A stretch of 64,000 nt of DNA from Lentisphaerota bacterium (lineage in GTDB: Bacteria; Verrucomicrobiota; Kiritimatiellia; UBA8416; JAUUYL01), in assembly GCA_030590485.1 (NCBI GenBank), contig JAUUYL010000005.1:6084-70083 (forward strand), given 5' to 3'. Shown here in pieces: positions 19,444-47,137 of this stretch (position 1 is its first letter; each line of letters opens with the position of its first letter). Both the position numbers and the translations under genes were made by a program. The notes beneath the pieces are model-generated. The model saw only the letters and a program-made list of their open reading frames with translations, did not search any database and was not told where the DNA came from.

Positions 19444-20928
19444 ATGACAATTGATAAAAGCAGATTTAGAATCTTTTTTGCAAACTGGATCAGCATAATC
19501 GGACTTTTGATAGTTTGTTTTGGCACTCTGCTTGGAACAGTGCTGATGATCGTCGATGTGTCCGGGGGAATGCATAACCCGTATGCAGGCTTGATTATTT
19601 ATATGGGCATACCGGCTTTTGTTCTGTTGGGGGTCGGCTTGATGCTTCTAGGTGCTTTTTTGACCATTAGGAAGAGAAGGAAGATAGGACACGAGACTCC
19701 ATTGCCTGCAGTGGACTTTAATGATCCCAAAGTTCTTCGGAGATTTATTATTTCTTGCGTTTTGGCCCTTGCATTCATCACTGCTACCGGAATGGGAGGA
19801 TATCATGCTTTTCACTTCACTGAATCTGTCGAGTTTTGCGGGGAGATATGCCATGAGGTGATGGAGCCTGAATACGTTGCATACCAGAACTCACCTCATG
19901 CCAACGTGTCCTGTGCGCATTGCCATATCGGGCCTGGTGCAGAATGGTTTGTGAAGGCTAAGCTCTCGGGTCTCTATCAGGTTTATTCCGTATTGTTTGA
20001 TAAATATCATCGACCTATTGAGACCCCGATTCACAACTTGCGGCCGGCGAAGGAGACATGTAACGAGTGTCATTGGCCCCGAAAGTTTTTTGGTTCGGTT
20101 CTTAGATCCTGGACATATTACTTACCTAACGAGACGAGCGAACCATGGACCATCAAGATGCTTATGAAAGTTGGTGGAGGTGATCCTGCGTACGGACCTG
20201 TTGGCGGGATTCACTGGCACATTAACGAGGATGTTGAGATTGATTATGTTTCTATGGACGGGAAACGAGAGGAAATCCCATGGATCAGGGTCAAGGGGCG
20301 TGACGGCAAGGTCACAATATACGAAGACAAAAAGAATAAGCTTTCCGAGGAAGAGTTGTCCGCAATGCATAAGAGACGTATGGATTGCATTGACTGTCAC
20401 AATAGGCCAACGCATCGCATCATGTCGCCAAACAAGGTTATGGATACGGCAATGACCCGGGGGTTGATTGATGAGAAATTTACAGACATCAGAATCATAG
20501 GCATGGATCTTCTGGTGGAAGAGTACAAGACGCAAGCAGAAGCGTTCAAGGCGATTGATGAGGGGTTGCGCGATGAATACGAAGGGGAGGATGGTCTTGA
20601 GGGGTTGATTGCCCAGATAAAGACGATATACCGTAATAACTTTTTCCCTGAGATGAAGGTGGATTGGAGATCCTACCCTGATCATATCGGGCATAAGATT
20701 ACGGCGGGATGTTTCAGATGCCACGATGACAAGCATGTTTCTAAAGACGGCAAAAAGATAAGCAGGGATTGCAATCTTTGCCATACAATAATAGCGCAGG
20801 GACCTGGCGAGGCTAAGGATGTTCATCAGATTTCATCGGGTGGCTTGGAATTTAAACATCCGGAAGATATTGATGGTGAATGGAAAGAGGGTAAATGCGA
20901 CGAATGTCATGAGGGAGTGCCGATGTAG
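19444..20928 (+). CDS. Membrane-anchored heptahaem c-type cytochrome (NapC/NirT-type; ImcH-like candidate quinol dehydrogenase)
   Basis: Two N-terminal hydrophobic helices and 7 CXXCH motifs (CGEICH, CAHCH, CNECH, CIDCH, CFRCH, CNLCH, CDECH). The similarity to Geobacter ImcH is architectural only and is not verified. Confidence 0.8.
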   Translation: MTIDKSRFRIFFANWISIIGLLIVCFGTLLGTVLMIVDVSGGMHNPYAGLIIYMGIPAFVLLGVGLMLLGAFLTIRKRRKIGHETPLPAVDFNDPKVLRRFIISCVLALAFITATGMGGYHAFHFTESVEFCGEICHEVMEPEYVAYQNSPHANVSCAHCHIGPGAEWFVKAKLSGLYQVYSVLFDKYHRPIETPIHNLRPAKETCNECHWPRKFFGSVLRSWTYYLPNETSEPWTIKMLMKVGGGDPAYGPVGGIHWHINEDVEIDYVSMDGKREEIPWIRVKGRDGKVTIYEDKKNKLSEEELSAMHKRRMDCIDCHNRPTHRIMSPNKVMDTAMTRGLIDEKFTDIRIIGMDLLVEEYKTQAEAFKAIDEGLRDEYEGEDGLEGLIAQIKTIYRNNFFPEMKVDWRSYPDHIGHKITAGCFRCHDDKHVSKDGKKISRDCNLCHTIIAQGPGEAKDVHQISSGGLEFKHPEDIDGEWKEGKCDECHEGVPM

Positions 20929-20999
20929 GTGTGTCTTGATATGTATTTGGCTTTTACAAGAGTAATGACAAGTGGTGAGGTGTTTGCAAAGGAGGCAAA

Positions 21000-21593
21000 A
21001 TGATGAGTACAAGCAAAATAGTTGGCATAGCGTTGATCGCTATGGTGATTTCCGGGATAATTGTAATGGCGGAGGAAGATAAGAGAGACGCGACTCTTTA
21101 TGCCGGGCTGAAATCCTGCCGTATGTGTCACAAGAAAGAAGCCGCTGGTAATCAGTATCAGAAGTGGCTTGATGGACCTCATTCTAAGACTTTTGAGATA
21201 CTCGCATCTGATGAGGCCAAGGCGATAGGCGCCAAGCTTGGTGTGGCTGAACCGCAGAAGAGCGCAAAATGCTTAAAATGTCATTCAACAGCTTATAACT
21301 GGGGCGACAAGCCTGTAGTAGAAAAGATTAAGCCTGAAGATGGTGTAGTTTGCGAATCATGTCATGGCCCAGGCAAGAATTACAAATCCAAGTCTATCAT
21401 GAAGGATCAGAAGGCTTGCATTGAAAACGGCATGATTTATCCGGCTACAAAGAGCTGCGTAAAATGTCACAACGAAGAGTCTGCGACTTGGAATCCTGAG
21501 CGCTATACGACCAAGGATGGGAAAAAGGTCGGATTTGATGTTGAGCAGGCATACAAGAAGATCGAGCATCCGAATCCGAATTTGCATAAATGA
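21000..21593 (+). CDS. Tetrahaem c-type cytochrome, periplasmic or membrane-anchored
   Basis: SD AAGGAGG lies upstream. There is an N-terminal hydrophobic segment and 4 CXXCH motifs (CRMCH, CLKCH, CESCH, CVKCH). Confidence 0.85.
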   Translation: MMSTSKIVGIALIAMVISGIIVMAEEDKRDATLYAGLKSCRMCHKKEAAGNQYQKWLDGPHSKTFEILASDEAKAIGAKLGVAEPQKSAKCLKCHSTAYNWGDKPVVEKIKPEDGVVCESCHGPGKNYKSKSIMKDQKACIENGMIYPATKSCVKCHNEESATWNPERYTTKDGKKVGFDVEQAYKKIEHPNPNLHK

Positions 21594-22741
21594 GCGGACT
21601 AATAAATTTTCTGACGTCTCTTAAGCTGACGTTAACAGTACTGCTGGTTATTGCCGTCGCCTGTATTGCGGGGACGGTTCTGCCTCAGGGTGCGGATGTA
21701 CTCAAGTATCTTGAGGCAAATCCCGGTGCTCAGTCTCAAATGGATCTGTTGGGGTTTCTGGGTTTGACCAACATCTTCTATTGTTGGTGGTTTATTTTTC
21801 TGCTGTGCTTTCTGTCGCTGAGCTTGTCGATCTGCACGTTCCGCAGATTTCGGGGTGCCTTGCGGCGGAAGAGCGGCTTGCGCTGGAAAGACCTAGGATC
21901 GCTTTTTTCTCACATTAGTCTCCTTTTGATCTTAGCGGGCTGTGTGGCGCGTTCTATCTGGGGTTTGAATGGTTATCTGCCGTTGCGTGAGGGCGAGACG
22001 AAGACAAAGTTTCAGGTTGAGACTGGTTTTGCCGAGTTGCCTTTTGAGATTCATCTCGAGGATTTCGAAATTGAGTTTTATGGGTCGGATGAGGATGAAC
22101 ATGTGCAGGATTCACTTTCTGAGAAGGTTGTAGTCTTGAATCATGACGGCCAGGTTGTGGCTGAGATGTCGTCAGAGCTTGATGCGGGTCAGGCTGTAGG
22201 CCCTGTGCAGTTAAAGGTATTAAAAAGAATTCCTGATTTTGTGGTCGATACTGCCACTGGTGGAGTTGTCAGTCGCTCGGAAGAGATGCATAATCCGGCT
22301 CTGCAGTTGGAAATCGTTGAAGGTGGAACGACTAATACACAATGGCTTTTCGCGCTGTATCCAGGGTTCAATATGCATAACAAAGAGGGTGCTGACAGAC
22401 CGCATTTGGATTTCAGGTATGAGGTGTATGTGCATTCCGGAAGTGAACCCGGGGTTAAAGATTATAAGAGTACACTCGTGGTCAAGGAAGACGGGGTGGA
22501 GGTCAAAAAGAAAACCATTGAAGTAAACCGGCCTCTGTCATATAAGGGGTATACGTTTTATCAATCTGGTTTTAATCCTGATGATCACAAATGGACGTCA
22601 TTACAGGTTGTCAAGGATCCTGGAGTTCCGTTGGTATACGCGGGCTTCTTGATGATGATTATAGGGTTGGCTATGGTTTTTTATGTGGACCCTAATTTGA
22701 GCGTAGATTCTCATGGTGGTGGAAAAAATAGCATAGAGTGA
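21590..22741 (+). CDS. ccsB: System II cytochrome c biogenesis protein ResB/CcsB (copy 1)
   Basis: N-terminus 'FLTSLKLTLTVLLVIAVACIAGTVLPQG' is ResB-typical. It has a large periplasmic loop, a C-terminal TM helix, and a 4-nt overlap with the preceding gene. Confidence 0.8.
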   Translation: MSGLINFLTSLKLTLTVLLVIAVACIAGTVLPQGADVLKYLEANPGAQSQMDLLGFLGLTNIFYCWWFIFLLCFLSLSLSICTFRRFRGALRRKSGLRWKDLGSLFSHISLLLILAGCVARSIWGLNGYLPLREGETKTKFQVETGFAELPFEIHLEDFEIEFYGSDEDEHVQDSLSEKVVVLNHDGQVVAEMSSELDAGQAVGPVQLKVLKRIPDFVVDTATGGVVSRSEEMHNPALQLEIVEGGTTNTQWLFALYPGFNMHNKEGADRPHLDFRYEVYVHSGSEPGVKDYKSTLVVKEDGVEVKKKTIEVNRPLSYKGYTFYQSGFNPDDHKWTSLQVVKDPGVPLVYAGFLMMIIGLAMVFYVDPNLSVDSHGGGKNSIE

Positions 22742-23538
22742 TATTTATGATTACGGCTTTTAATATTAGTTTCGCATTATGCCTTGTGGCTTTGATAGTG
22801 GCTTTTGTGGGTTTGCTGAATAAGCGTGAGATAGTCGGGCGTATAGGCTTTGGTGTCAACATATTGGCGGTGGCTGCTCTGACGGTGTATATAGTGATGC
22901 GCTGGATGGCTGCGGGCAGAGCTCCGTTCAGCAACATGTTTGAATCATTGGTTCTTTTTGCATGGACGATCCTGGTCGTTTATATTTTTGTGTACAAGAA
23001 ACTGAAGCTTCCTATTGTTACGGCGGCATTGTCATTGATGGTGGTTTTGACTTTGGCTTATGCGACGACTTTCGGAGCTGATATCCGGCCGTTGGTTCCT
23101 GCGCTGCAGAGCAATTGGTTGACCGTTCATGTGTTCACATGTTTTCTTGGTTACGGCGGGTTTGCGGTTTCGTTTATTGCCGCGATTTCGTATGTAATAG
23201 CTTCCCGGGAAAACAGTAAAGCCGCTTATGAGACCAAAGATTCTCTTGAGGTTGTTATGGCGAAGACGGTTGCGTTCGGATTCCTTTTTCTGACGGTAGG
23301 GATTATGACTGGTGCTGTGTGGGCGAACTCCGCATGGGGCACATATTGGTCATGGGACCCAAAGGAAACCTGGTCTCTTGTCACATGGCTGGTTTATGCC
23401 GGGTTTTTACATTGCAGATTTATCAAAGGTTGGCGCGGGCAAAAATCAGCCTGGATGTCGATACTAGGATTTATCTCCGTTCTCTTCACCTACTTTGGGG
23501 TGAACTTCTTGCTGAAAGGGCTTCACAGCTATCTATAG
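22738..23538 (+). CDS. ccsA: System II cytochrome c synthase subunit CcsA/ResC (copy 1)
   Basis: The WWD haem-handling motif 'WGTYWSWDPKETWSLVTW' and flanking His residues are present. The start overlaps the ccsB stop (GTG 22738 or ATG 22747). Confidence 0.9.
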   Translation: MIFMITAFNISFALCLVALIVAFVGLLNKREIVGRIGFGVNILAVAALTVYIVMRWMAAGRAPFSNMFESLVLFAWTILVVYIFVYKKLKLPIVTAALSLMVVLTLAYATTFGADIRPLVPALQSNWLTVHVFTCFLGYGGFAVSFIAAISYVIASRENSKAAYETKDSLEVVMAKTVAFGFLFLTVGIMTGAVWANSAWGTYWSWDPKETWSLVTWLVYAGFLHCRFIKGWRGQKSAWMSILGFISVLFTYFGVNFLLKGLHSYL

Positions 23539-23687: not shown

Positions 23688-24290
23688 ATGAAGGGTTTGA
23701 AAATATTAACATTTATGGTGGCTACCATGTTGGTCATCGGTTTGGCTGCTATGGGTGCTCAGGTGAAGATCGATGGCTCGAAACACGATTTTGAAGGGCT
23801 TACCTGGAATCAGAACGGTGGCATTTGTGGTCCTTGTCATACTCCTCATAATGCTCTCAGTTCGGTAGCACCGCTGTGGAGTCACACGAATACAGCGGCA
23901 TCATTTACGATGTATACAAACGTAACGATGAATGCTGCACAGCCGACTGAACCCAATCCGGTTTCACTCATGTGTTTGAGTTGCCATGACGGCACCATAG
24001 CTTTGGATGCTTTTGTTGGAGAAACCGCAGGAGCCACCGCTACTATGCCCGTAGGAAGTCAGGTGGGTGCTGGTGCTAACCTGGGAACTGAGCATCCTAT
24101 TTCGATTCTCTATGATACGAATTTGGTAACCGCTGATGGCGCATTGAAAGCTCCTCCTGCAAATCTTCTAAATGGTGGCTATGTCGAGTGCTCGTCTTGT
24201 CATGATGCTCACGGCGGTGAGGAGAACACCAAGTTACTTCGAATGGCTAACAGCAACAGTGAACTTTGTCTTACTTGCCACGATAAGTAA
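23688..24290 (+). CDS. Secreted tetrahaem c-type cytochrome (paired-CXXCH type)
   Basis: SD AAGGAG is 8 nt upstream. Signal peptide 'MKGLKILTFMVATMLVIGLAAMGAQV'. Four CXXCH motifs (CGPCH, CLSCH, CSSCH, CLTCH). It is homologous to the N-terminal ~190 aa of the 12-haem protein at 29479 (shared 'GSKHD', 'PLW', 'CLSCHDGTIAL', 'HPIS'). Confidence 0.9.
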   Translation: MKGLKILTFMVATMLVIGLAAMGAQVKIDGSKHDFEGLTWNQNGGICGPCHTPHNALSSVAPLWSHTNTAASFTMYTNVTMNAAQPTEPNPVSLMCLSCHDGTIALDAFVGETAGATATMPVGSQVGAGANLGTEHPISILYDTNLVTADGALKAPPANLLNGGYVECSSCHDAHGGEENTKLLRMANSNSELCLTCHDK

Positions 24291-24332: not shown

Positions 24333-24363
24333 ACGTCCCTTCGCAAGAGGGGCGTTTCTTGTT
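24333..24363 (+). terminator. Rho-independent terminator or attenuator
   Basis: ACGTCCCT-TCGCAAG-AGGGGCGT forms an 8-bp stem with one G-T pair, followed by TTCTTGTT. It lies 43 nt after the cytochrome stop and only 14 nt before the next ATG. Confidence 0.65.
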
Positions 24364-24376: not shown

Positions 24377-25465
24377 ATGAGAACAAATAAACGACAACCT
24401 TTTTCTTTAATGGGCTTTACCTTTGGAATCTTGCTTCTTGTGCTTGCTGGCGGGTGCAGAACCCAGATTAAAACGAAAGGAGCTTCAGTCTTTTATCCGC
24501 CGCCACCTGATAAGCCAAGGATTCAGTTTCTTGTCGGCCTTTCCACCTCTGAACTGTTGACTTATGTGTCTCCGCTCAAACGTTTTGTCATGGGTCCACC
24601 GTCTGTCATATCTTTTGGGAAGCCTTATGGGTTGAAGATGCGAGATGGGAAGGTCTTCATTTGTGATACCGGATATGGAGGGGTTCTGGTTGCTGATTTT
24701 GCGAATACGAGTTTTTCCGGCCTCAGTACCATAGGTGGAGGTAAGCTGAAGAAACCGATAGACATGGATATAGATGACGATGGTAATTATTACGTTGTCG
24801 ATGCGGCAAGAGGTCAGGTGTTTGCCTATGGGCCCGACAATGCTTGCAAGTGGATTGTCGGTGACATTAAGAAAACGATGAAGCCGGTGGATGTGGCTGT
24901 TTCCGGGAGCAAACTATATGTTGCTGATATGAAGGGCCACACCGTGAAGGTTTATGATAGAAAGACTCAAAAACTGTTAACGGAGATTCCGAATAATGCT
25001 ACAGAACTGAGTGCTGACCATAAACTCTTTCAGCCTATAAGTATAGCATTATGTGAAGACGGCGGCATACTGGTTGTCGATGCAGGTGCATTCAAGGTTC
25101 AGCATTATGATCGCGAAGGGAATTATGTTAAGTCTATAGGAGAGCATGGCGATCTGCCAGGGCAGTTTGCCAGGCCCAAGGGCATAGCTGTGGACAGGGC
25201 GGAGCGGGCATATGTGGTCGATGCTCTTTCAGGAGTGGTTCAGATCTTCAACAAGGAAGGTCAACTTCTGACGTTCTTCGGCGAGAAGGGGAGCCGGGCC
25301 AGTCTGGTCTTGCCTGCTGATGTTGAGATTAATTATGATGGTATTGAACTTTTCAGAAAGTACATAGATCCAAAATTTGAGGTGGAGTACCTTGTTCTGG
25401 TTTCCAGCCAGTATGGTCTGCGAAAGCTTAGTGTGTTTGGTTTTGGGCGTATGAAAGAGTTATAA
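24377..25465 (+). CDS. NHL-repeat beta-propeller protein, probable lipoprotein
   Basis: Start moved to ATG 24377, downstream of the terminator. N-terminus 'MRTNKRQPFSLMGFTFGILLLVLAGGC'. NHL-type repeats include 'FARPKGIAVDRAERAYVVDALSGVVQIFN'. Confidence 0.8.
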   Translation: MRTNKRQPFSLMGFTFGILLLVLAGGCRTQIKTKGASVFYPPPPDKPRIQFLVGLSTSELLTYVSPLKRFVMGPPSVISFGKPYGLKMRDGKVFICDTGYGGVLVADFANTSFSGLSTIGGGKLKKPIDMDIDDDGNYYVVDAARGQVFAYGPDNACKWIVGDIKKTMKPVDVAVSGSKLYVADMKGHTVKVYDRKTQKLLTEIPNNATELSADHKLFQPISIALCEDGGILVVDAGAFKVQHYDREGNYVKSIGEHGDLPGQFARPKGIAVDRAERAYVVDALSGVVQIFNKEGQLLTFFGEKGSRASLVLPADVEINYDGIELFRKYIDPKFEVEYLVLVSSQYGLRKLSVFGFGRMKEL

Positions 25466-25512
25466 TTTGCGGGTTCAGGTATCTCGCAATTGCAGGATGG
25501 TTGTCTGCAGAG

Positions 25513-26406
25513 ATGGTTTTAATTGTGTCTGACTCCAAAAAATGGTTTGCAAGAATCCGAAGTTGTATAATGTTGGCCATTATTGCTCTAATATCAGCTG
25601 GGTGCGCGACAAAGACAAAGCATGAATGGTTGACTTTCTTTTTTGATGGTGTACCTCCCCTGGAAAAACAGCTGGGGAAACAGCAAGTCTTGACTGCCGA
25701 CAAAAAGGCAGGAGGCACGACATCTGAATCATATTATATTCCTCTGCATAAACCTCTTGTTCGAACGTATGAACATAATCCTTATAGCAAACGCAATTGC
25801 AAATCATGTCATGAATCAAAATTTTCTCAGAAGCTTTTAGGGAAGACAATTGATGTTTGCATGAAGTGTCATTCGAAGTTGCTTAAGGACAAGAAGAATA
25901 AACATGACCCGGTAGCCGAGGGGGAGTGCCTGGAGTGCCATGAGCCGCACAAGGCGGACAATAAGAATCTTTTGAAACGGAAAGGTGCAAAGCTGTGCTA
26001 TGAATGTCATGACGACGAGGTGACAGAGGCCAAGTTTAAGCATGATCCTGCCGCTGACGGATCATGCGCCGAGTGTCACAATCCTCACGCATCCAACAAC
26101 AAAAACCTGCTTATAAGGACTGGCAAGGCGTTGTGCTATGAATGTCATGAGGATGAGGTGACAGAGGCCAAGTTCAAGCATGATCCGGTTGATGAGGGTG
26201 AATGTTCTGAATGCCACGATCCGCACAAATCCAAGAACAAGTATCTGCTGAAGAAGGCGGGAGACGCATTGTGTTATGAGTGTCATGATCAGGATGACAT
26301 AAGTGAGAACAAGGCGCATGAGCCCTCGAAGGTGGCGGCTAAGAGCTGTATTGGGTGTCATGATCCGCACAAAAGCGAGAATAAGTATCTTCTAAAGCAG
26401 TTATGA
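25513..26406 (+). CDS. Nonahaem c-type cytochrome, probable lipoprotein, with a triplicated dihaem module
   Basis: '...IMLAIIALISAGC' precedes 9 CXXCH motifs. The module 'KHDP..(E/D)G.C.ECH.PH...NK.LL...G..LCYECH(D/E)DEVTEAKF' occurs three times and is also visible as a near-identical DNA repeat (~25996 and ~26136). Confidence 0.9.
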   Translation: MVLIVSDSKKWFARIRSCIMLAIIALISAGCATKTKHEWLTFFFDGVPPLEKQLGKQQVLTADKKAGGTTSESYYIPLHKPLVRTYEHNPYSKRNCKSCHESKFSQKLLGKTIDVCMKCHSKLLKDKKNKHDPVAEGECLECHEPHKADNKNLLKRKGAKLCYECHDDEVTEAKFKHDPAADGSCAECHNPHASNNKNLLIRTGKALCYECHEDEVTEAKFKHDPVDEGECSECHDPHKSKNKYLLKKAGDALCYECHDQDDISENKAHEPSKVAAKSCIGCHDPHKSENKYLLKQL

Positions 26407-26434
26407 CGGTTTTTAGTCAAAGGTGTTGTCTTTT

Positions 26435-28453
26435 ATGAATGGAGTCGCAAAAAGAGTGATTTTGCTCTCAATTGGGCTGTTTATGATGTCGAGTTCTGTA
26501 ATGGCGCAATACTACAGCAGGACCAGAACACCTGTTGTCCAGCCGAAGGCAGCACGTTGGGAGTTTTATTTTAAGAATATCGTTTTGGATTACAGCATCG
26601 AAGAGGAAAAGAGTTATTCAAGCGCAGATGATGAGCACCTGTACCGTTCCGTAGAGAGCTTTTCTCCTATGATTGGTGGTGGTATATCCGGCTCTCTTTA
26701 TCACCCCAATCTGTTCTCATTTACTGTTGAGGGTGTAGAGGGTATCACTAAGGATGATGTCAAAACGGAGCCATCTGGTGTGGCGACCGAAAGGCCGGAG
26801 GGGAAAAGTTCCAGCGAGATGGGCTATATATCAGCAGAGGCCAGTTTATTTCAGCATAAACCTTATGGTCTCAGGTATCACTATAATCGGACATCCACTT
26901 TGAGGAATTATGATTTCTTTTCCAGGGTAAGGGTCCATACGACAAGGCATGATATATACTGGGGTGTCAATCTTGACCCGCTTGTGGTGACTGTATCATT
27001 TAACAAATGGCGTGAGCATATTGAAGAGCTAACGCGACCGACGTGGAGAGATGAGAGTAGTCTGGAGACGCGTATGGCATATACGCCATCCACATACAAT
27101 GCAACCAGGATAAAGCACACCATAGAAGATTTTACCAGTCTCCAGGAGGGCTCCGATCTGTTAACTGGCACGCGCAATGTGTTTAATTTTGAGAATACAT
27201 TAAGACCGTACGGAAGCGAGATTATTTCGATGCGTACATCAGCTGATGCATATATTCTTGATAGTGTAAGTGGTGATAGCGAACAGTATAGTGTCGGTGA
27301 ATCTATCAGGGTTCACCATGCGCGCAGTCTGGATGGATCCTATTCGGGTCGAGTAAGCAGGAATGAGAATGACGGCGCCAGTAATGATCGATTCCACATA
27401 TTGGGATCATTAAGCCACAAATTGTACGAGAGTCTTTATTCATCGATTCAGGTGGGCTTACATAATTCTGAGATGACGGACGAGTTCGGCGATCTGGTTT
27501 GGAAAAACAATTCGTTTAGCAGGGGGTTTAGTGAGAGTTATAACAAGAAGCTGCCCGCCGGAGCACGCCTGAACCTCTCGTTTGGCTGGGACGTAACATC
27601 CACGGATCATGAGTCTGGGCAGACGTCGGTTAATGTGTTTGATGAGCGGCATAGATTACTTAATGGAGAAAAGACATTTCTTAATCTTCTTAACGCTGAA
27701 CAGCAGAGTGTGGTTGTTGCGGATATTTCCGGTAAAATTATTTATCTTGAGGGTTTGGACTACAGGGTGATTAATCACGGTCAAAGTCTGGAAATAGAGC
27801 GTGTGATTGCCGGAACGATCAGAAATGGCGCTGAGGTACTGGTGGATTACACGGCGCAGGGAACCGGGAGTGAGAAATATGAATCTTTTAACAGGAACGC
27901 CGCGGCATCTCTATCGTTCTTGGATGGGCGTGTGAGGACGTATGTTCGGTCAATCGAGAACGAAAGTGACGGTACGACCGGTTCGTTGACTTTTGAGGAC
28001 ATAAGCAGTAAAATAATAGGCGCGGAGTTATCAGGGCCTTCTTTTAAGATGGGCGTGGAAAGGCAGGATGTGGGCTCGAGCTATATACCTTACAACTCTG
28101 TGAGATTCTTTCAGGATTACTATATGAATGCCGGTAAACGCACCCAGGCGACTCTCAGCATGTCCCAGCTTATGGCGGATTATCATGAGCTTGATCAGAA
28201 TGAGCGCGTTTATTCTAGTGTGTTAACATGCAATTCTCAGATTACGTATGATCTGAGGGCATCATTTTCGGTAGGCTTGTATGATGAGCGAGGGCGAGGT
28301 ATTGAACGCAACTATGAGGTGTATAGGGGCGGTTTGAACTGGAGGCTTGGTATGGCCAGGGTCGCGATGACTTTTCACTATTCTGACTCGCGGGATGATG
28401 ACAGCATTAGAGAGAAAAAGTCTTTCAGTATTCGCTTTGAGAGGGCTTTGTAA
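26435..28453 (+). CDS. Putative outer-membrane beta-barrel (porin-like) protein, no haem motifs
   Basis: Signal peptide 'MNGVAKRVILLSIGLFMMSSSVMAQ'. 672 aa, rich in Tyr/Ser/Arg/Gly, with alternating-polarity stretches to the C-terminus ('SFSIRFERAL'). No hydrophobic helices. It is sandwiched between lipoprotein cytochromes. The barrel fold is inferred, not demonstrated. Confidence 0.55.
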   Translation: MNGVAKRVILLSIGLFMMSSSVMAQYYSRTRTPVVQPKAARWEFYFKNIVLDYSIEEEKSYSSADDEHLYRSVESFSPMIGGGISGSLYHPNLFSFTVEGVEGITKDDVKTEPSGVATERPEGKSSSEMGYISAEASLFQHKPYGLRYHYNRTSTLRNYDFFSRVRVHTTRHDIYWGVNLDPLVVTVSFNKWREHIEELTRPTWRDESSLETRMAYTPSTYNATRIKHTIEDFTSLQEGSDLLTGTRNVFNFENTLRPYGSEIISMRTSADAYILDSVSGDSEQYSVGESIRVHHARSLDGSYSGRVSRNENDGASNDRFHILGSLSHKLYESLYSSIQVGLHNSEMTDEFGDLVWKNNSFSRGFSESYNKKLPAGARLNLSFGWDVTSTDHESGQTSVNVFDERHRLLNGEKTFLNLLNAEQQSVVVADISGKIIYLEGLDYRVINHGQSLEIERVIAGTIRNGAEVLVDYTAQGTGSEKYESFNRNAAASLSFLDGRVRTYVRSIENESDGTTGSLTFEDISSKIIGAELSGPSFKMGVERQDVGSSYIPYNSVRFFQDYYMNAGKRTQATLSMSQLMADYHELDQNERVYSSVLTCNSQITYDLRASFSVGLYDERGRGIERNYEVYRGGLNWRLGMARVAMTFHYSDSRDDDSIREKKSFSIRFERAL

Positions 28454-29482
28454 ATGAAATTGGTAAGAGAGACAATTTGCATAAATGTTATATTTTCGCT
28501 GTTTCTTCTGTCGATGACGGGGTGCCGGACTGCGGATCCGGATCTGGCGGAAACTGTCGTTGATATTGTCTGGCCGGCACCACCAGCTGAAATGAGAGTT
28601 AAGTATGTTAAAAGCTTCAAGAGTTCCAGCGATTTGGGATTCAAGACAGGCTGGTTTGTGAAGGTCCTGAATTTTGTTACTGGTTCCGAGAAGGGTCGCG
28701 AGCGGTTTATCAAGCCATTCGATCTGTGTTTTGATGAAAAGGGCAATATATGTGTAGCTGACACAGGGTCTATGTCTGTGCATTTCTTTGATTTTGAGAG
28801 AGGAAAGGCCTGGAACTGGAAGAGGATCGGAGGGGAAAGATTGGTACTGCCTGTCTCCGTAGCTAAGCGAGGGGATATATTCTACGTTGCTGATTCCGCA
28901 CTTGGTAAGGTTCTGGCGTTTGACAAGAAAGGGCGGGTGCAGTTTGAGATTGCAGAAAGGTTATCCCGCCCTGTGAGTCTGGATATTGCGGATAATAATC
29001 TTTTTATTGCTGATTCCAAGCTGCACAAAATCTTTATCTATGATCTTGAAGGAAAATATATATCTGAATTTGGGAAAAGAGGCGGCGGCAATGGTGAGTT
29101 TAATTATCCAACGCATATAGCGGTTGACTCTTCGGGAAGATGTTTTGTTACCGATTCTATGAATCAAAGGGTGCAGATAACAGATCAGAAGGGCGGTTTT
29201 ATAGCGGAAATCGGCAGTGCGGGCGACAGTAGCGGTCATTTCAGTAGACCAAAGGGTATTGCTCCAGATAATGATGGGCGTTTATATGTGGTAGACGCAA
29301 TTTTTGATAACATACAGATATTTGATGATGCAGGGCGTTTTCTTATGGTATTTGGTTCTGCCGGAACTGAGCCGGGAGAGTTCTGGATGCCGATCGATGT
29401 AGAATATACGTCGGATAGGCAAATATACGTGACAGACACTTATAATCGACGGATTCAGATTTTTGAGTATATAGGAAAGTGA
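28454..29482 (+). CDS. NHL-repeat beta-propeller protein, probable lipoprotein
   Basis: '...IFSLFLLSMTGC' at the N-terminus. Repeats include 'FNYPTHIAVDSSGRCFVTDSMNQRVQITD', 'FSRPKGIAPDNDGRLYVVDAIFDNIQIFD' and 'FWMPIDVEYTSDRQIYVTDTYNRRIQIFE'. The gene starts immediately after the preceding stop. Confidence 0.85.
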   Translation: MKLVRETICINVIFSLFLLSMTGCRTADPDLAETVVDIVWPAPPAEMRVKYVKSFKSSSDLGFKTGWFVKVLNFVTGSEKGRERFIKPFDLCFDEKGNICVADTGSMSVHFFDFERGKAWNWKRIGGERLVLPVSVAKRGDIFYVADSALGKVLAFDKKGRVQFEIAERLSRPVSLDIADNNLFIADSKLHKIFIYDLEGKYISEFGKRGGGNGEFNYPTHIAVDSSGRCFVTDSMNQRVQITDQKGGFIAEIGSAGDSSGHFSRPKGIAPDNDGRLYVVDAIFDNIQIFDDAGRFLMVFGSAGTEPGEFWMPIDVEYTSDRQIYVTDTYNRRIQIFEYIGK

Positions 29483-31221
29483 TGGACAGCATGGAAACAG
29501 GAAGAAACCTTAGTGTGATTCGACAGGTGATATTGTATGTCACCTTCGCTATTGTTTTTTCTGGGTGTAATGACGTTATTGCGGCAAGTATTGTGGGTTC
29601 CAAACATGACTTGTCGGTCAGGGGCCCCGGCCCTACAAAGTCACCCTTTGAGCGGCAGGTCTGTATTTTTTGTCATGCGGTCCATAACAGTAGTGCCGGT
29701 ACGCCCCTCTGGAACAGGTATAGTTCCGGTTCTGTTTACGAGACGTACAAAAGCACTACATTGAAAGCTAATGTGGGGCAGCCAACGGGGTCTTCTAAGA
29801 TGTGCTTGAGTTGTCATGACGGAACAATAGCTCTTGGAATGGTTCGGAGTCGGTCTGAGCCCATTCGCTTTGCCGGTGGTGTTGTTGCCATGCCGGCAGG
29901 TGCTGCTAATCTTGGTACTGATCTTGCGGATGATCATCCTATATCTTTCAGGTATAATCAGGAGCTGGCTGACAAGAATGGAGAGCTCCATAATCCGTCG
30001 GCACTGGGTGGACATGTTCGTCTCGAGGGTGGGCAAGTGCAGTGCACGACATGTCATAACGCGCATGATAATCAGTTTGGTGATTTTCTTGTTATGGATA
30101 ATTATGGCTCTGCATTATGTGTTCAATGTCACGACAAGAAGAACTGGAAAGATTCTTCTCATAAGTCGTCGAATGCGCAATGGAATGGTAAGGGTAAGTC
30201 TCCATGGCACAAGGTCAAGGATGGTACCGTTAAAGGACAGGGCTGTGAGAGTTGTCATCGTCCGCATACGGCAGGAGCCAAGCAGAGGCTTCTTGCATAC
30301 AAGAATGAAGAAGATAATTGTTTTTCCTGTCACAATGGGAATGTGGGAAGAAACAATATTGAGGCTGAGTTCGAGAAAAGCAGCAGGCATAATCTTGTGG
30401 GAACTTCTGGCGTGCATGATCCGACGGAAGATTATATCAACCCATCAGTCAGGCATGTAGAGTGTGTTGATTGTCATAATCCGCATGCGGTCAAGAATGT
30501 GCCTGCCGAAGCGCCCGAAGCGTCCGGTGCATTGTTTGCGGTTAAGGGCATAAATGCAGCTGGCGGAGAGGTTAGAGAAGTGAAATATGAGTATGAGCTA
30601 TGCTATCGATGCCATGGTGACAGTGCGGACAAGGGTGCGGCTAGAATAGAAAGGCAGTTCCCGCAGACAAATGTGCGGGTAGAATTTGATTCGGGGAATG
30701 CGTCGTTTCATCCGGTAACGGCCCCCGGCAGGAATTCGCGTGTACCTAGTCTGATGCAGCCGTATGATGAGTCGACAGTTCTCTATTGTACGGATTGTCA
30801 CAGTAACAATGAATCACGGAAAGACAAGGGTGATGGACCAAGCGGACCGCACGGTTCGATATATGAGCCGATATTACAGCGTCGTCTGGTTTGGACGGAT
30901 TTTTCATCTGAAAGTGCGGCGGCATATGCGTTATGCTACAAGTGTCATGAGCGGAACAGCATTCTTGCGAATGAGAGTTTCTCTCTGCATAGTAAACATG
31001 TGGCAGACGAAAAGACGGCCTGTACGACATGTCATGATTCTCATGCATCAGAGAATAACACGCACTTGATTAATTTTAATATCCGTTACGTATCTAAAAA
31101 CAGTAGTGGGGATTTGAGCTGGAGGGATAATGGAGATTTGTCGGGAACTTGTAATTTAAGCTGTCATGGCAAGGATCACAAAGACTCAAGATATCCTGTA
31201 GTAAAAGTAATAATACCATAA
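29479..31221 (+). CDS. Dodecahaem-class c-type cytochrome, probable lipoprotein
   Basis: '...VTFAIVFSGC' precedes 11 CXXCH motifs plus one C-terminal CX3CH ('CNLSCH'). The start overlaps the preceding stop (GTG 29479 or ATG 29482). Confidence 0.9.
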   Translation: MMDSMETGRNLSVIRQVILYVTFAIVFSGCNDVIAASIVGSKHDLSVRGPGPTKSPFERQVCIFCHAVHNSSAGTPLWNRYSSGSVYETYKSTTLKANVGQPTGSSKMCLSCHDGTIALGMVRSRSEPIRFAGGVVAMPAGAANLGTDLADDHPISFRYNQELADKNGELHNPSALGGHVRLEGGQVQCTTCHNAHDNQFGDFLVMDNYGSALCVQCHDKKNWKDSSHKSSNAQWNGKGKSPWHKVKDGTVKGQGCESCHRPHTAGAKQRLLAYKNEEDNCFSCHNGNVGRNNIEAEFEKSSRHNLVGTSGVHDPTEDYINPSVRHVECVDCHNPHAVKNVPAEAPEASGALFAVKGINAAGGEVREVKYEYELCYRCHGDSADKGAARIERQFPQTNVRVEFDSGNASFHPVTAPGRNSRVPSLMQPYDESTVLYCTDCHSNNESRKDKGDGPSGPHGSIYEPILQRRLVWTDFSSESAAAYALCYKCHERNSILANESFSLHSKHVADEKTACTTCHDSHASENNTHLINFNIRYVSKNSSGDLSWRDNGDLSGTCNLSCHGKDHKDSRYPVVKVIIP

Positions 31222-31228: not shown

Positions 31229-31756
31229 ATGATGACTGAGCAAAAGATAAATGAAATACAAAAGAAGTATAAGAAAGAATTTGTGGCGAATACCGTTGGC
31301 TTTATAGTGTTTGGCCTTCTGGTTCTAGGCATTATGCTTGGCTGTAAAACATGTTCAGAAACCGCCGATACGGATTCGGCAAGAAAGCCACTCAATATGA
31401 ATGTGTGTCCGGCAGGCGGAAGTGACGGTGATGCCGAGAGCGATGCTCAGGATAAGCCTGAATTGCCAGCGGGCCATCCGGACATGACGCCGAAGAAGCC
31501 GCAATCAATGGATAATATACCGCACATTAAAGGGAAAGTCGTGGAGACGATGAATTCCGGACGTTACACATACGTTCTTGTTGAGGGTGATGGTAAAAAG
31601 ACATGGGCGGCTGCACCAGAATTCAAGGTGAAAGTAGGCGATCAGGCTGTGTTCCCTCTTGGAATGCCGATGAAGAACTTCAAGAGTAGAACGCTTGACC
31701 GTACTTTCGAGATTATATATTTCTCTGGTGACATTTTAATTGTTCCAGCCAGATAA
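31229..31756 (+). CDS. Membrane-anchored protein with an acidic linker and a conserved-looking C-terminal beta domain; unknown function
   Basis: SD AAGAGGA lies upstream. One hydrophobic helix ('FIVFGLLVLGIMLGC'). The C-terminus 'GRYTYVLVEGDGKKTWAAAP...' is not assigned to any family. Confidence 0.6.
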   Translation: MMTEQKINEIQKKYKKEFVANTVGFIVFGLLVLGIMLGCKTCSETADTDSARKPLNMNVCPAGGSDGDAESDAQDKPELPAGHPDMTPKKPQSMDNIPHIKGKVVETMNSGRYTYVLVEGDGKKTWAAAPEFKVKVGDQAVFPLGMPMKNFKSRTLDRTFEIIYFSGDILIVPAR

Positions 31757-33763: not shown

Positions 33764-34576
33764 TTACGGGCCGGGATGGATGGTGGGTGCAAACCAGCTG
33801 ATGCCCCAGTAGGATATGGTGAGAATCACTAACCCAAACGCCGCGATCCATGCGGTACGTGTCATCTTCCATCCTCGAAAGCGTCTGACATGAAGATAAA
33901 AAACATAGAGAAGATAAGAGAGCAGACTCCATGCTTCCAGTGGTGCCCAGCTCCAGTAGTGTCCCCATGCTCTCTTCGCCCAGATTGCGCCTGAGGCAAT
34001 CATGATGGTTTGGTTTACAACGCCGAGAACAATCAGTCGATAGCTGGTAAGATCAAGTTTCTCGGCAGATGGCAATCGGTTGGGAAACTTCCTGTCAACA
34101 TTCTTATGGAGGAGCAGCAATATCCCGGCTGCCGCGGCAAGGGCGTAATTGCCAAATGCAATCCAAGCAAAGGTTACATGTACAACCATCCAAGGGGTGG
34201 CATACAGCGATCCCATATCAGACGACGGAGCCTGGGACGCGTAGGCGTTCCCGAGCAACAGAAAGGTGATTGGGGTCACAAGAAGGGATAAAACGCGCGG
34301 CACCATACCTGTTGCCTGGAGCAGTAGGAAGAGTAATACTGTGCACCAGACCGCAGAAAGCTGGAGCTCGTAGGGGTCTACCACAGGCGGGTGTCCGGCT
34401 TGGATCCAGCGGAGACCCAGAAGAGCCGTGTTCGCCGCTAATCCAGACCACAACAAGATGATGGCTTTGCGGATACCTGCTTCAGACTCATGCCCAAATG
34501 CCCGCAGGTGCAACAAGAATGATCCCATATAGAGAAAGACGGTTGTCCAGAAAACGATTATTTCAGCCTGCGCCAT
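33764..34576 (-). CDS. ccsA: CcsA/ResC-family cytochrome c synthase subunit (copy 2, variant WWD motif)
   Basis: ATG 34576 is preceded by AAGGAGG. The WWD-like motif is 'WGHYWSWAPLEAWSLLSY', with Ala-Pro-Leu where copy 1 has Asp-Pro-Lys. Confidence 0.8.
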   Translation of the reverse strand: MAQAEIIVFWTTVFLYMGSFLLHLRAFGHESEAGIRKAIILLWSGLAANTALLGLRWIQAGHPPVVDPYELQLSAVWCTVLLFLLLQATGMVPRVLSLLVTPITFLLLGNAYASQAPSSDMGSLYATPWMVVHVTFAWIAFGNYALAAAAGILLLLHKNVDRKFPNRLPSAEKLDLTSYRLIVLGVVNQTIMIASGAIWAKRAWGHYWSWAPLEAWSLLSYLLYVFYLHVRRFRGWKMTRTAWIAAFGLVILTISYWGISWFAPTIHPGP

Positions 34577-35750
34577 TCTGCCTTGCCTCCTTGATCCAAT
34601 CAACTACCTCGGGTGAATAGCGCAACATGAGCGCGATGATCGCCATCCAGAACGAGACGCATACTATCGGGTAGCCTGGGTCCTCCACAACCAAAAAGCT
34701 TGCCCATCGACGAAGTTCACGAAATTGAATGTCTAGCTCCTCGATCTCGATACGCTTTCCGAGCTCGATAAGCTGTTTTTGGGTCTCGGTACCGTCAGGT
34801 GATTCCAGGTGAGCCAAAAGCGCCGGGTTCTTTAACGCCTCAGATGTCTTTACGGGAATACCATTACTGATGGAATGCGATGGGAAAAGGCTAAGTATGA
34901 GGCGTCGCTCGCTATGGGGGAGGGTGAGAAAATCCCGATGCTCCCGCTCTTTATTAACACCCCATACTTTCAGGGCAATAAAACAGTTAAACGGCGGGGT
35001 TTGTGCATCTTTGGGTGTGATCAGAATTTCAGGAGAAAACCCGATTTCCTGCAACGTGAAAGTAATTCCCTTAAATCGAAAAGGCAGGTTGAATTCTATC
35101 TCAGCGGTACGGGTCTCCGTTTTGTCTGCACTTAGACGAATGGAGGCGCTCTTTTGTCCCGCCCACCAATCCGCTGGCGCGTCAAATTGTGCATCAAGCA
35201 GATGAACTCTAAATCTATCATGCTGCTGTTTTCGTAAAGGCCCTTCAATTCGTTCTGAATAGTTCTGACGATGATCCTGAAGTGTTTGTCCTTCTGTCAG
35301 TATGAGCTGCCCACTCGTACGAAATGCGGCACTGCAAAATCCTCCTGCCATGCAAACCAAAATACTGATGTGGAGGGTCGCAAATCCAAGTCGGCGCAAC
35401 CGGTTCGAGGCGGCGCTGCCGGAAAACAGTTCGTCCCTAGCGATGTTATGAATCATGCAAGCCAGTGTATTTAGGAATAGTACGGCTAGAGAAATCAGAA
35501 ACCATGCGGACTGAAACGTTGCGAACAGGCCAAGCTTTGAAAGAACAGGAGTGGCTCTTGGATGTTCATGCTTCCACTCAAGGATGCCGCTTTCTTCAAG
35601 CATGCCCTGTTGCGGGACGAGCGCGCCTGTAAGGGTCAGAAGAATAAGGATGCCAATAACGATCAGAGTGATGTTTGTTGAGGCAAGAAAGCCAGTCCAT
35701 GAGGATCTGCTTCGATTCTTTGGGTTTTGATCTCCGTCCTGCATGATCAC
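34563..35750 (-). CDS. ccsB: ResB/CcsB-family cytochrome c biogenesis protein (copy 2)
   Basis: N-terminus 'FLASTNITLIVIGILILLTLTGALVPQQG'. It has a central periplasmic region and a C-terminal TM helix. Confidence 0.75.
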   Translation of the reverse strand: MIMQDGDQNPKNRSRSSWTGFLASTNITLIVIGILILLTLTGALVPQQGMLEESGILEWKHEHPRATPVLSKLGLFATFQSAWFLISLAVLFLNTLACMIHNIARDELFSGSAASNRLRRLGFATLHISILVCMAGGFCSAAFRTSGQLILTEGQTLQDHRQNYSERIEGPLRKQQHDRFRVHLLDAQFDAPADWWAGQKSASIRLSADKTETRTAEIEFNLPFRFKGITFTLQEIGFSPEILITPKDAQTPPFNCFIALKVWGVNKEREHRDFLTLPHSERRLILSLFPSHSISNGIPVKTSEALKNPALLAHLESPDGTETQKQLIELGKRIEIEELDIQFRELRRWASFLVVEDPGYPIVCVSFWMAIIALMLRYSPEVVDWIKEARQNGAG

Positions 35751-39420: not shown

Positions 39421-39453
39421 ATAAAAGTGCAAGAAAAGGGTTTGAAAGCCCTT
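39421..39453 (-). terminator. Weak candidate intrinsic terminator after hemA
   Basis: On the minus strand, AAGGG-CTTTCAAA-CCCTT is followed by TTCTTGCACTTTTAT. The stem is only 5 bp. Confidence 0.3.
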
Positions 39454-40735: not shown

Positions 40736-40737
40736 GT

Positions 40738-41583
40738 TTAGTTTCCGATTGGTGTGCTTATAAAGCTATGCGAACTCTCCGTTACAATATGCACACCAAA
40801 GAATGTGAATAGCACAAATAGAAGTCCCGCAATAGTTGCGAGGGCTATTTTTCTGCCGTGTTGGTCCCCTTTAGTGCGAAGGTGAAGAAGGATGGCGTAG
40901 ACAATCCAAGTGGCTGCGGTTGCAGCGGCCTTTGGATCCATTATCCATTTTGAGACATCCGCGGTTTTGTGGGCCATCATAATTCCGAATGCGATGGAAG
41001 CGGTGAAGGTGATGAAAGCCAATCCTATCTGTCTTCGCATCAGCGAATCGAGAATCTCGAGTGACGGGAAGTTCTCGTAGGTCGCGCCAAAATGTTTTCT
41101 TTTCAGGTTGTTGTCCTGAATGAGGTAAATCAGTGCAAGGATGCTGGCAGTGGTGAAGAAGCCGTATCCAATAAACGCGGAGGAGACGTGGAGCGACAGC
41201 AATGATGTTGGCCATGTAGCATCTGGACTTGTGGGAACATCGTTGATCGAAGTCAAAGCGATTGCCATTACCAATGTGATGGATGGCAGAACTATAGCGG
41301 ACACACCCTTGAGATTATCTCGTGCAGCCATATTAATGTAAGAGATGAAGAGAGCGAGTGAGTACAGGCTTAAAGCTTCCATCTGGCCAAAGACAGGTAT
41401 CTTTCCTTCCTGAATGCCGCGAAGGGCAAGCAGGAGGATAATTGCAGTCGCACTGCATATTGACAGGGCGAGCACAGGTTTTTCGGTGAATGGGCGTTGG
41501 CGATTCAGCTGTGACAATGCTGTCACTGAAGCTGCAATGCAACAAGCTATTGCCGATCCTGCTAATATTATTTGCCATATCAT
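40738..41583 (-). CDS. CcsA/HemX-like cytochrome c assembly family membrane protein (copy 3, degenerate WWD)
   Basis: About 8 hydrophobic helices. 'SKWIMDPKAAATAATWIVYAILLHLR' sits where the WWD motif is in CcsA. The stop is 2 nt before the hemA start. Confidence 0.7.
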   Translation of the reverse strand: MIWQIILAGSAIACCIAASVTALSQLNRQRPFTEKPVLALSICSATAIILLLALRGIQEGKIPVFGQMEALSLYSLALFISYINMAARDNLKGVSAIVLPSITLVMAIALTSINDVPTSPDATWPTSLLSLHVSSAFIGYGFFTTASILALIYLIQDNNLKRKHFGATYENFPSLEILDSLMRRQIGLAFITFTASIAFGIMMAHKTADVSKWIMDPKAAATAATWIVYAILLHLRTKGDQHGRKIALATIAGLLFVLFTFFGVHIVTESSHSFISTPIGN

Positions 41584-42829: not shown

Positions 42830-42859
42830 TTAGAATCATCCCTATTTCTGTATCTTTCT
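42823..42859 (+). terminator. Rho-independent terminator or attenuator
   Basis: GGGATGAT-TAGA-ATCATCCC forms a perfect 8-bp stem that includes the TGA stop, followed by TATTTCTGTATCTTTCT. Only about 25 nt separate it from the next ATG. Confidence 0.7.
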
Positions 42860-47134: not shown

Positions 47135-47137
47135 GGA

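Follow-up and report, generated by a model that had tools for sequence, protein, structure and literature searches.

A 64,000-nucleotide (nt) stretch of contig JAUUYL010000005.1 from a Lentisphaerota bacterium (positions 6,084 to 70,083 of the contig; hereafter referred to as the window and numbered from its first letter) carries a conserved extracellular-electron-transfer gene set that is one more cluster of the omcE type. It is likely that the region concerned, extending from position 23688 to probably 31756, is a locus for an extracellular cytochrome filament combined with a porin-cytochrome apparatus, as found in Geobacter and Desulfuromonas, and probably also as in the uet cluster of "Candidatus Tenderia electrophaga". 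As defined by Petersen et al., a minimal omcE cluster lies beside resB/ccsB and encodes OmcE and a large beta-barrel, together with a pair of beta-propeller lipoproteins and a pair of multihaem cytochromes (bioRxiv 10.1101/2025.10.22.684050). The window contains a gene for each of these parts: a tetrahaem OmcE homologue within the ~200-240 amino-acid (aa) range, with four CXXCH motifs and four further conserved histidines; two beta-propeller lipoproteins with NHL repeats (hereafter referred to as NHLa and NHLb); two further multihaem cytochromes, with nine and 12 haems; a large outer-membrane barrel of a family also present in a Geobacter metagenome-assembled genome (MAG); and the adjacent resB/ccsB (Table 1).

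A sequence-only reading of the window had placed the left boundary of the module at 24377, one gene too far to the right, thereby excluding the OmcE homologue. Its description of a porin-cytochrome-like module is sound in that the outer-membrane multihaem set includes a large barrel, a lipoprotein cytochrome resembling MtrA/DmsE and a sizeable secreted cytochrome, but it is incomplete. With the OmcE homologue included, the locus reads as one for a cytochrome filament rather than as a plain conduit of the Pcc/Ext type. The left end of the module should be set at 23688, and the module probably also extends rightwards to 31756, taking in a 175-aa membrane protein. The same reading considered the integral, coupled NHL propellers to be novel. 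This view could not be maintained: propellers have been described in the omcE, uet and osc clusters (see below), NHL genes are carried by the cytochrome clusters of D. ferrophilus (PMC9769857), and the propellers are a known part of such systems.

The 200-aa tetrahaem cytochrome matched two solved OmcE filaments over its full length in phmmer searches of the PDB, those of D. soudanensis (9YUQ, E 1.1e-21) and G. sulfurreducens (7TFS, E 2.7e-19), with 32-35% identity. It displayed no sequence relation to the hexahaem cytochrome OmcS (E 0.19). A joint alignment was built from the small tetrahaem cytochromes and the N-terminal domains of the large 12-haem proteins. In this alignment, C47/C50/H51, C96/C99/H100, C168/C171/H172, H54, H136 and H175 were invariant, and C194/C197/H198 and H33 were nearly so (≥90%); the invariance holds in both sets.

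Conservation of the gene set across phyla

One genome per GTDB species was scanned, with an OmcE-like alignment as the query, and 507 matches were confirmed. The survey counts given here are based on the best 79 loci (L numbers), in which all open reading frames (ORFs) were scored with a hidden Markov model of the barrel and with the proteins of the window. These loci came from Ignavibacteria/Melioribacteraceae, Calditrichota, Bacteroidota, Gemmatimonadota, Verrucomicrobiota, Planctomycetota, Nitrospirota, Acidobacteriota, Desulfobacterota (including the Geobacter MAG), and Beta- and Gammaproteobacteria. All five families were present in 33 of the 45 loci of at least 15 kb. The recurrence of this set of genes across many phyla places the five-gene arrangement far beyond chance.

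The survey sharpens the module into two rearrangeable sub-modules, each with one NHL propeller and one OmcE-fold cytochrome. Sub-module A consists of omcE, NHLa, a lipoprotein cytochrome of the FFDGVP type (or none) and the barrel gene, in this order; sub-module B consists of NHLb followed by the 12-haem cytochrome gene. An NHL gene directly followed 57 of the 92 OmcE-like small cytochrome genes with room downstream, and the barrel gene lay within 5 kb in 39 of the 42 omcE-NHL pairs with enough flanking sequence. Directly upstream of the 12-haem gene, an NHL gene was found in 37 of 43 cases, with a modal junction of -4 nt. The sub-modules are arranged in the order A-B in the window and in the Geobacter MAG (L015), and in the order B-A in Ignavibacteria and Calditrichota, and each NHL gene stays with its own cytochrome gene in both orders. 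The six genes of the window recur in L015 in unchanged order, with identities to the window ranging from 22% (barrel) to 44%. The relatives found with the barrel (L001-L006, 24-39% identity) encode a small tetrahaem cytochrome, an NHL protein, a lipoprotein multihaem cytochrome, the barrel, a second NHL protein and a cytochrome of ~560-600 aa with 11 CXXCH motifs and one CX3CH motif, often with a c554-like tetrahaem cytochrome and ResB/CcsA nearby. The full module was also found in Acidobacteriota and Verrucomicrobiota loci (L082, L034). The synteny of NHL and cytochrome genes expected from the sequence was thus retained in relatives.

The lipoprotein cytochrome of sub-module A has five haems in 27 loci, nine in five and 15 in one, and its gene is missing where NHLa abuts the barrel gene. 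Given that this periplasmic cytochrome is variable or absent in many loci, the constant core of the module is omcE, NHLa and the barrel, together with NHLb and the 12-haem protein. Such a core favours a barrel that mounts or exports OmcE-fold proteins at least as much as one that sheathes an MtrA-like wire.

Many loci (L001, at 959-1591, L013, L014, L016, L022, L047, L048, L058 and others) have a second OmcE-like gene, with five haem motifs, beside the tetrahaem one. These genes match the five-haem OmcE-like variants proposed by Petersen et al. as a possible new family of "leaky" nanowires (bioRxiv 10.1101/2025.10.22.684050); the window carries the four-haem form only. A contig labelled "Thermoplasmata archaeon" (L085, JBHHWA010000004.1) was considered as a control lacking the barrel and was rejected. 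Its omcE, NHL and 12-haem genes lie alongside a sigma-54 activator, histidine kinases and a DctP-type binding protein, and the sigma-54 activator and two-component genes indicate that it is probably a mis-binned bacterial contig. It has a 584-aa ORF in the barrel position, for which the hhalign comparison with the barrel profile was not significant (probability 3.4%).

In the PDB, both propellers of the window matched NHL domains with six blades, from TRIM71, TRIM2 and Brat (TRIM71: E 5.5e-28 for NHLa and 3.7e-50 for NHLb), in agreement with their earlier description as six-bladed. The lipoboxes of both are kept in orthologues; for NHLa, in which the lipid cysteine is followed by a conserved YPPPPDxPR motif, the lipobox was recovered by regular expression in 50 of 61 orthologues, and most of the others look like misses of the expression. 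NHLb is translationally coupled to the 12-haem gene. A second NHL-cytochrome pair lies on the - strand of the window: the gene for a 661-aa fusion of NHL repeats, a cadherin domain and TSP3 repeats (37358-39343) shares 4 nt with the start of that for a 526-aa, 11-haem cytochrome (35781-37361), followed by another ResB/CcsA pair (33764-35750, - strand). The 526-aa protein displayed only a weak local match to the C-terminal domain of the 12-haem protein (E 3e-9). The repetition of this coupled layout suggests a general rule for the pairing of NHL and multihaem genes.

The propellers are quite unlikely to be enzymes or substrate binders, whether lactonase-like or, as suggested by the sequence-only reading, in contact with mineral or polymer. 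Such a role would be consistent with a weak Pfam similarity to SGL/gluconolactonase and arylesterase propellers, with the adhesion-type repeats of the third NHL protein of the window, and with the linking of a G. metallireducens NHL protein to Fe(III) oxide reduction, possibly by adhesion (cited in bioRxiv 10.1101/2022.05.06.490989). However, the one-to-one pairing of NHLa with omcE and of NHLb with the 12-haem gene survives the rearrangement of the sub-modules, with NHLb keeping its 4-nt overlap, and this conserved pairing points to protein-specific NHL-cytochrome partnerships. Furthermore, the best matches of the propellers are the protein- and RNA-binding TRIM-NHL domains, not enzymes.

Barrel, multihaem cytochromes and proposed working

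The haem-free protein of 672 or 676 aa was modelled with AlphaFold2, with 60 family homologues as the input. The model (predicted local distance difference test score, pLDDT, 91.5; predicted template modelling score, pTM, 0.79) contained 30 long antiparallel strands according to DSSP, bearing out the earlier proposal of a barrel. A Foldseek search of the PDB with this model returned only large outer-membrane barrels as top matches (Cir, LptD, the FimD usher at ranks 6 and 8, and MtrB, 6r2q_B, at rank 14 with a template modelling (TM) score of 0.32), with TM-scores of 0.3-0.36 overall. According to the model, the protein is a barrel without a close solved relative. It had no match in the Pfam copy searched, and the search of NCBIfam (E≤0.01) yielded only a sub-threshold match to a phage tail-tube model (15.7 bits, for a cut-off of 60 bits); no MtrB/PioB-type model was matched, the presence of such a model in the release not being confirmed. 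An exhaustive HMMER search nevertheless identified a family of 1005 cluster representatives (E≤1e-3), mostly of ~660 aa and alignable from end to end; word-indexed searches with the barrel, alone or as a 60-sequence profile, found two proteins each. One relative (P0002) bears PF27730 (UCP028589). The best conserved part of the family is a domain inserted between strands 18 and 19 (residues about 409-475). It is small and beta-rich, with the consensus ..VTDxxGxxxYxEGLDYxV..TEIxRVxGGxIPxGxxVLVDYxA, and, provided that the strands were counted correctly, would face the periplasm; for many distant homologues, the alignment is confined to this region.

The FimD matches raise the possibility that the barrel is mainly an usher-like pore for the secretion or assembly of OmcE-fold cytochromes, with the NHL proteins as periplasmic chaperones, as in chaperone-usher pili. 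We regard this as possible, although the odds are not in its favour. The constant partners of the barrel are omcE and NHLa, not the periplasmic multihaem protein; a porin- or usher-like mounting of OmcE and OmcS filaments is discussed by Petersen et al. (bioRxiv 10.1101/2025.10.22.684050); and the "channel-like" OscEFG are needed for OmcS secretion, according to two sources citing Shen et al. 2025 (PMC13194489 and the Petersen preprint). Nevertheless, the barrel has no sequence relation to ushers, the TM-scores are low for every class of barrel, a folded tetrahaem protein with covalently bound haems would have to pass, and neither an energy source nor a chaperone-type fold is evident. This possibility overlaps with, and is compatible with, the assembly of a filament on the barrel that we favour.

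The 9-haem lipoprotein encoded directly upstream of the barrel is a candidate for its periplasm-side insert, by analogy with MtrA. Its score against the DmsE family model TIGR03508 (165.6 bits, E 1.4e-48) was below the cut-off of 192.2, and its best match in the PDB was chain A of 6r2q (E 2.8e-16). It has nine haems rather than 10 and a lipobox, which is kept in orthologues together with the FFDGVP motif.

With identities of 45-66% across phyla, versus 22-37% for the barrel, the 12-haem cytochrome is the most conserved component of the module. Its residues 22-220 matched both OmcE filaments in phmmer searches of the PDB (7TFS, 4.6e-25; 9YUQ, 6.3e-21). The median score of G. sulfurreducens OmcE was 102 bits against the N-terminal domains of the 12-haem proteins (n=52) and 85 bits against the small tetrahaem cytochromes of the same loci (n=103). 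OmcE and the 12-haem protein also have a mature N-terminus in common (SIVxSKHxLS). Invariant across the family are 12 haem motifs and at least 13 further histidines, one of which (H228) directly follows the OmcE-like domain. At E≤1e-20, homologues were found in at least 7865 database clusters, none informatively named; the closest relatives with an organism name were mostly from Verrucomicrobia, and others came from Kiritimatiellia, Nitrospirae and "Clostridia" MAGs. The protein also matched the Pfam model for MtrC/MtrF domains II/IV (46.2 bits, above the 30-bit cut-off). A lipobox-like cysteine was present in six of 52 orthologues, the others having a plain signal peptide cut just before SIVxSKHNLS, and the protein of the window bears both a possible lipobox (VFSGC) and an IAA/SIVGSKH cleavage site. 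Thus, of the lipoprotein assignments made from the sequence, those of NHLa, NHLb and the 9-haem protein stand, whereas that of the 12-haem protein is doubtful. The AlphaFold2 model of the 12-haem protein was poor (pLDDT 52.4), as expected for a haem protein modelled without its haems.

Some of these features would suit a plain conduit of the Mtr, Pcc or Ext kind with no filament, in which the barrel sheathes the 9-haem protein, the 12-haem protein is a surface reductase and the tetrahaem protein is a monomeric carrier in the periplasm or at the surface. The 9-haem protein is MtrA-like, MtrB is among the fold matches of the barrel, the 12-haem protein matches the MtrC/MtrF model, and such a conduit was the published interpretation of the uet cluster, the tetrahaem UetA being regarded as a simple extracellular cytochrome (bioRxiv 10.1101/2022.05.06.490989). 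We nonetheless consider such a conduit unlikely. The tetrahaem protein aligns over its full length with two solved OmcE filaments, with every haem ligand conserved. No other protein accompanies the barrel as constantly, and the MtrA-like protein varies or is missing. In addition, an OmcE-like domain with the mature N-terminus of OmcE within the 12-haem protein is hard to explain without contacts of the OmcE-OmcE type.

In the filament-forming arrangement that we favour, all components would be exported by the Sec pathway and haem would be attached by the adjacent ResB/CcsA pair, as their position suggests. The predicted ~30-strand barrel would lie in the outer membrane, and the 9-haem lipoprotein may enter it from the periplasmic side, as MtrA does in MtrB. 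The 12-haem protein, a candidate link between barrel and filament, would be located at or through the outer face of the barrel, with its 8-haem C-terminal domain taking electrons from the periplasmic side and its N-terminal domain presenting an OmcE interface. The 200-aa OmcE homologue would polymerise on this domain, forming a filament with stacked haems along which electrons pass away from the cell or towards it, as suggested by its homology to 7TFS and 9YUQ. In OmcE filaments, haem is ligated by a histidine of the neighbouring subunit (PMC9473688; PMC12307469). The conserved gene pairing suggests that NHLa partners the subunit and NHLb the 12-haem protein; these lipoproteins would most likely serve as a periplasmic holdase or assembly scaffold, blocking premature polymerisation or docking the cytochrome at the barrel.

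The question of how the filament begins and ends is raised by Petersen et al., who argue that a protein at its end would be expected to possess one histidine beyond the need of its own haems, and who state that the operons encode no OmcE-like candidate for the filament tip (bioRxiv 10.1101/2025.10.22.684050). The invariant histidines of the 12-haem family exceed the need of 12 haems by at least one (H228, for example), and the 12-haem protein would fit the description of a terminal protein, as a base or a cap. An extra histidine of this kind could ligate an otherwise unligated end haem and nucleate or terminate polymerisation. We therefore put forward, as a tentative proposal with less than even chances, that an OmcE filament has the 12-haem protein as its membrane-proximal base or cap, the 8-haem tail of this protein wiring the filament to the barrel, and that each NHL protein is the chaperone of one OmcE-fold protein. 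No description of the 12-haem protein as an OmcE-like filament base was found in the literature consulted for the module. If true, this proposal would explain the initiation and anchoring of cytochrome nanowires, a question posed as open in the 2025 preprint. The survey makes filament assembly and anchoring more directly testable.

Several points weigh against a filament locus. Filament formation is deduced from an identity of 32-35% to two solved filaments, and OmcE-like tetrahaem cytochromes are very widespread and not all of them need polymerise (bioRxiv 10.1101/2025.10.22.684050). Sequence searches detected no relationship between the barrel and MtrB/PioB or any NCBIfam model, and the TM-scores of its model to solved barrels are only 0.3-0.36. 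The model of the 12-haem protein was poor, and its domain arrangement and its contacts with the barrel or OmcE are putative. A lipoprotein cytochrome with five, nine or 15 haems, or absent altogether, implies that the analogy with MtrA in MtrB does not describe a universal core. The role suggested for the NHL proteins is drawn from gene pairing. Finally, the physiological need for cytochrome filaments is disputed (PMC11077965).

Gene layout and flanking genes

The five co-directional ORFs from NHLa to the 12-haem cytochrome were re-called on the + strand at the same coordinates and in the same order as in the sequence-only reading. The near-zero junctions it reported were recovered, with 0 nt between the barrel and NHLb genes (28453/28454) and an overlap between the NHLb stop codon and the start of the 12-haem gene (29479/29482) of 4 nt for the GTG start or 1 nt for the ATG start; the remaining gaps within the block are of 16-35 nt. 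The count of 46 CXXCH motifs in the called ORFs of the window agreed with that given earlier, but two CX3CH motifs were found rather than one, in the genes at 19444-20928 and 29479-31221. The NHL repeats and multihaem families were recognised by Pfam and NCBIfam scans. An Rfam scan of the window found nothing at the gathering threshold, and the hits of a sigma-70 promoter scan did not exceed the shuffled expectation, with no promoter in the 149-nt gap before the omcE-like gene. The omcE-NHL spacer of relatives is a true gap, of 11-326 nt in most pairs, whereas NHLb and the 12-haem gene overlap instead. The terminator-like hairpin in this spacer of the window is possibly an attenuator that would raise the dosage of the filament subunit over that of the downstream machinery.

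Table 1. Features of the module and its flanks in the window (two values for a start indicate alternative start codons).
Feature	Position	Strand	Evidence or remarks
494-aa cytochrome of NapC/NirT type, three N-terminal transmembrane helices, 6 CXXCH + 1 CX3CH	19444-20928	+	Pfam Cytochrom_NNT 6.5e-09
c554-like tetrahaem cytochrome	21000-21593	+	Pfam Cytochrome_C554 6e-16
ResB/CcsB	21590-22741	+	Pfam ResB 1.1e-49; TIGR03144 CcsB 266.9 bits, above cut-off
CcsA	22738-23538	+	Pfam Cytochrom_C_asm 6.1e-55
omcE-like tetrahaem cytochrome, 200 aa, putative filament subunit	23688-24290	+	Sec signal peptide; strong ribosome-binding site GAAGGAG
Terminator-like hairpin with T-rich tail	24337-24352	+	Consensus scan only; between omcE-like gene and NHLa
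NHLa, six-bladed NHL propeller lipoprotein	24359/24377-25465	+	Pfam NHL 1.6e-15; lipobox LAGGC
9-haem lipoprotein cytochrome, MtrA/DmsE-like	25501-26406	+	9 CXXCH; N-terminal C-x(~10)-FFDGVPP motif
Haem-free outer-membrane beta-barrel (predicted), 672/676 aa, about 28-30 strands	26423/26435-28453	+	AlphaFold2 model; Sec signal peptide ..VMA/QYY
NHLb, six-bladed NHL propeller lipoprotein	28454-29482	+	Pfam NHL 1.5e-26; lipobox SMTGC; WPxPP motif
12-haem cytochrome, 580 aa, 11 CXXCH + invariant CX3CH	29479/29482-31221	+	N-terminal OmcE-like tetrahaem domain (~33-220); C-terminal 8-haem domain
175-aa membrane-anchored protein	31229-31756	+	7 nt downstream of 12-haem gene; no Pfam hit

Immediately upstream of the module, ResB and CcsA make up a pair for cytochrome c maturation by System II. 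The same pair adjoins the module in L003-L005, and resB/ccsB flank omcE clusters in Desulfuromonadia (bioRxiv 10.1101/2025.10.22.684050). Further upstream, the c554-like tetrahaem cytochrome has counterparts beside the module in several surveyed loci. The 494-aa cytochrome has an architecture that we take to resemble that of Geobacter ImcH. It is plausible that these two cytochromes (19444-21593) are periplasmic and inner-membrane feeders that would link the module to the quinone pool.

An inward flow of electrons, with the module serving for uptake from a syntrophic partner, cathodes or Fe(II) rather than for the reduction of extracellular acceptors, appears rather unlikely, but has some basis. 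Such a role has been put forward for Uet of Tenderiales and Gallionella. The same parts list occurs in cathode- and iron-oxidising bacteria (bioRxiv 10.1101/2022.05.06.490989; PMC10734462), our survey found OmcE-like loci in MAGs of Gallionella-like betaproteobacteria, Thiodiazotropha and Woeseiaceae, and Mto/Mtr multihaem conduits may be reversible (PMC10734462). Nothing in the window fixes the direction; the NapC/NirT-type cytochrome fits quinol oxidation, yet such proteins are also reversible. This alternative concerns direction only, and not the architecture of the module.

Downstream, homologues of the 175-aa membrane protein adjoin the module in L002-L005, L007, L020, L034, L049, L058, L059, L070 and L081. 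Past this gene, up to 33763 on the + strand, are genes for a 127-aa membrane protein and a B12-binding radical SAM enzyme, a pair kept only in the closest relative, L002. On the - strand, at 39452-41583, a third CcsA-like "cytochrome c assembly" gene comes after hemA (glutamyl-tRNA reductase), giving three CcsA-family genes in the window; a hemA-ccsA pair also adjoins the module in L003 and L004. At positions 1-34000 and 42000-54000 of the window, the GC skew follows the coding strand unusually strongly: it is strongly positive (0.1-0.34) along + strand genes and close to zero along - strand genes.

Comparison with known systems

The module resembles MtrCAB of Shewanella (6R2Q) in having an MtrA/DmsE-like multihaem cytochrome gene directly before that of a large barrel, with a nearby multihaem protein containing segments like MtrC/MtrF domains II/IV. 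It differs in that the barrel is not of the MtrB/PioB family by sequence and has about 30 predicted strands rather than 26, and in that its MtrA-like protein, a lipoprotein with nine haems, does not reach the family cut-off. The Mtr system has neither propellers nor a filament subunit.

In the Pcc and Ext systems of Geobacter, a single operon encodes lipoprotein cytochromes, a barrel and a multihaem protein of the periplasm. The window shares this combination with OmaB-OmbB-OmcB, ExtABCD, ExtEFG and ExtHIJKL, but the NCBIfam models did not place it among them: the GSU2203-family decahaem model scored 92 bits (cut-off 325), the ExtM model scored 14 bits (cut-off 800) and only on the c554-like protein, and the barrel had no model hit. 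Moreover, the omcE type is a separate locus in Geobacter genomes (bioRxiv 10.1101/2025.10.22.684050). The distinction by sequence is based on NCBIfam models.

Two further systems can be compared. According to sources citing Shen et al. 2025, the osc (omcS-companion) cluster of G. sulfurreducens comprises a channel-like outer-membrane component, the propeller-like OscD, multihaem cytochromes and the NHL protein gene oscJ (GSU2494) (PMC13194489; bioRxiv 10.1101/2025.10.22.684050). As in the window, a filament cytochrome gene is accompanied by channel-like, propeller-like, multihaem and NHL companions, but the osc filament is built of the hexahaem OmcS, which has no sequence relation to OmcE, and osc includes a peptidyl-prolyl isomerase (PPIase) chaperone, OscH. 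EET1 and related "porin-scaffold-cytochrome" clusters of peat Acidobacteriota and Verrucomicrobiota are described as conserved and expressed, and as having "OmcE-like" cytochromes with 8-13 haems (bioRxiv 10.64898/2026.05.27.727921). By that description, they are like the module in having a porin, periplasmic and extracellular multihaem cytochromes, and a scaffold component.

The uet cluster of "Candidatus Tenderia electrophaga" encodes the tetrahaem UetA, the 28-strand barrel UetC, the NHL proteins UetH and UetI, the undecahaem UetJ and CcsAB (bioRxiv 10.1101/2022.05.06.490989), and is also found in some Gallionella (PMC10734462). By the published description of gene content, this parts list matches that of the window, with UetH and UetI adjoining the 11/12-haem UetJ. 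Genes for a cupredoxin, three trihaem c7 proteins and a PPIase (UetB) are found in uet but not in the window; uet lacks an MtrA-like lipoprotein and has been proposed to function in electron uptake.

The closest correspondence is with the omcE cluster of Geobacter and Desulfuromonas, a type found in five phyla, the barrel of which was considered a putative secretion channel or anchor (bioRxiv 10.1101/2025.10.22.684050). The window has the same six gene families, with resB/ccsB adjacent and all the haem ligands of OmcE conserved. The differences are the nine haems of its lipoprotein cytochrome, versus five in most loci, the lack of a glycosylation gene block, and the clear OmcE-like N-terminal domain of its 12-haem protein, the preprint having found no candidate for the tip. 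The locus is a clean, compact example from outside Geobacter, with all the parts and the haem-maturation genes in one operon-like block. Likened by gene content, the uet and omcE clusters are likely to be equivalent. No paper naming both UetJ and OmcE was found in the literature searched, and this equivalence may have gone unremarked. The survey suggests that the omcE cluster, uet and the "EET" clusters of peat may be one family under different names. As a corollary of the proposed role of the 12-haem protein as filament base or cap, the uet "porin-cytochrome" systems of iron- and cathode-oxidising bacteria would be the same machine as the omcE nanowire locus of Geobacter.

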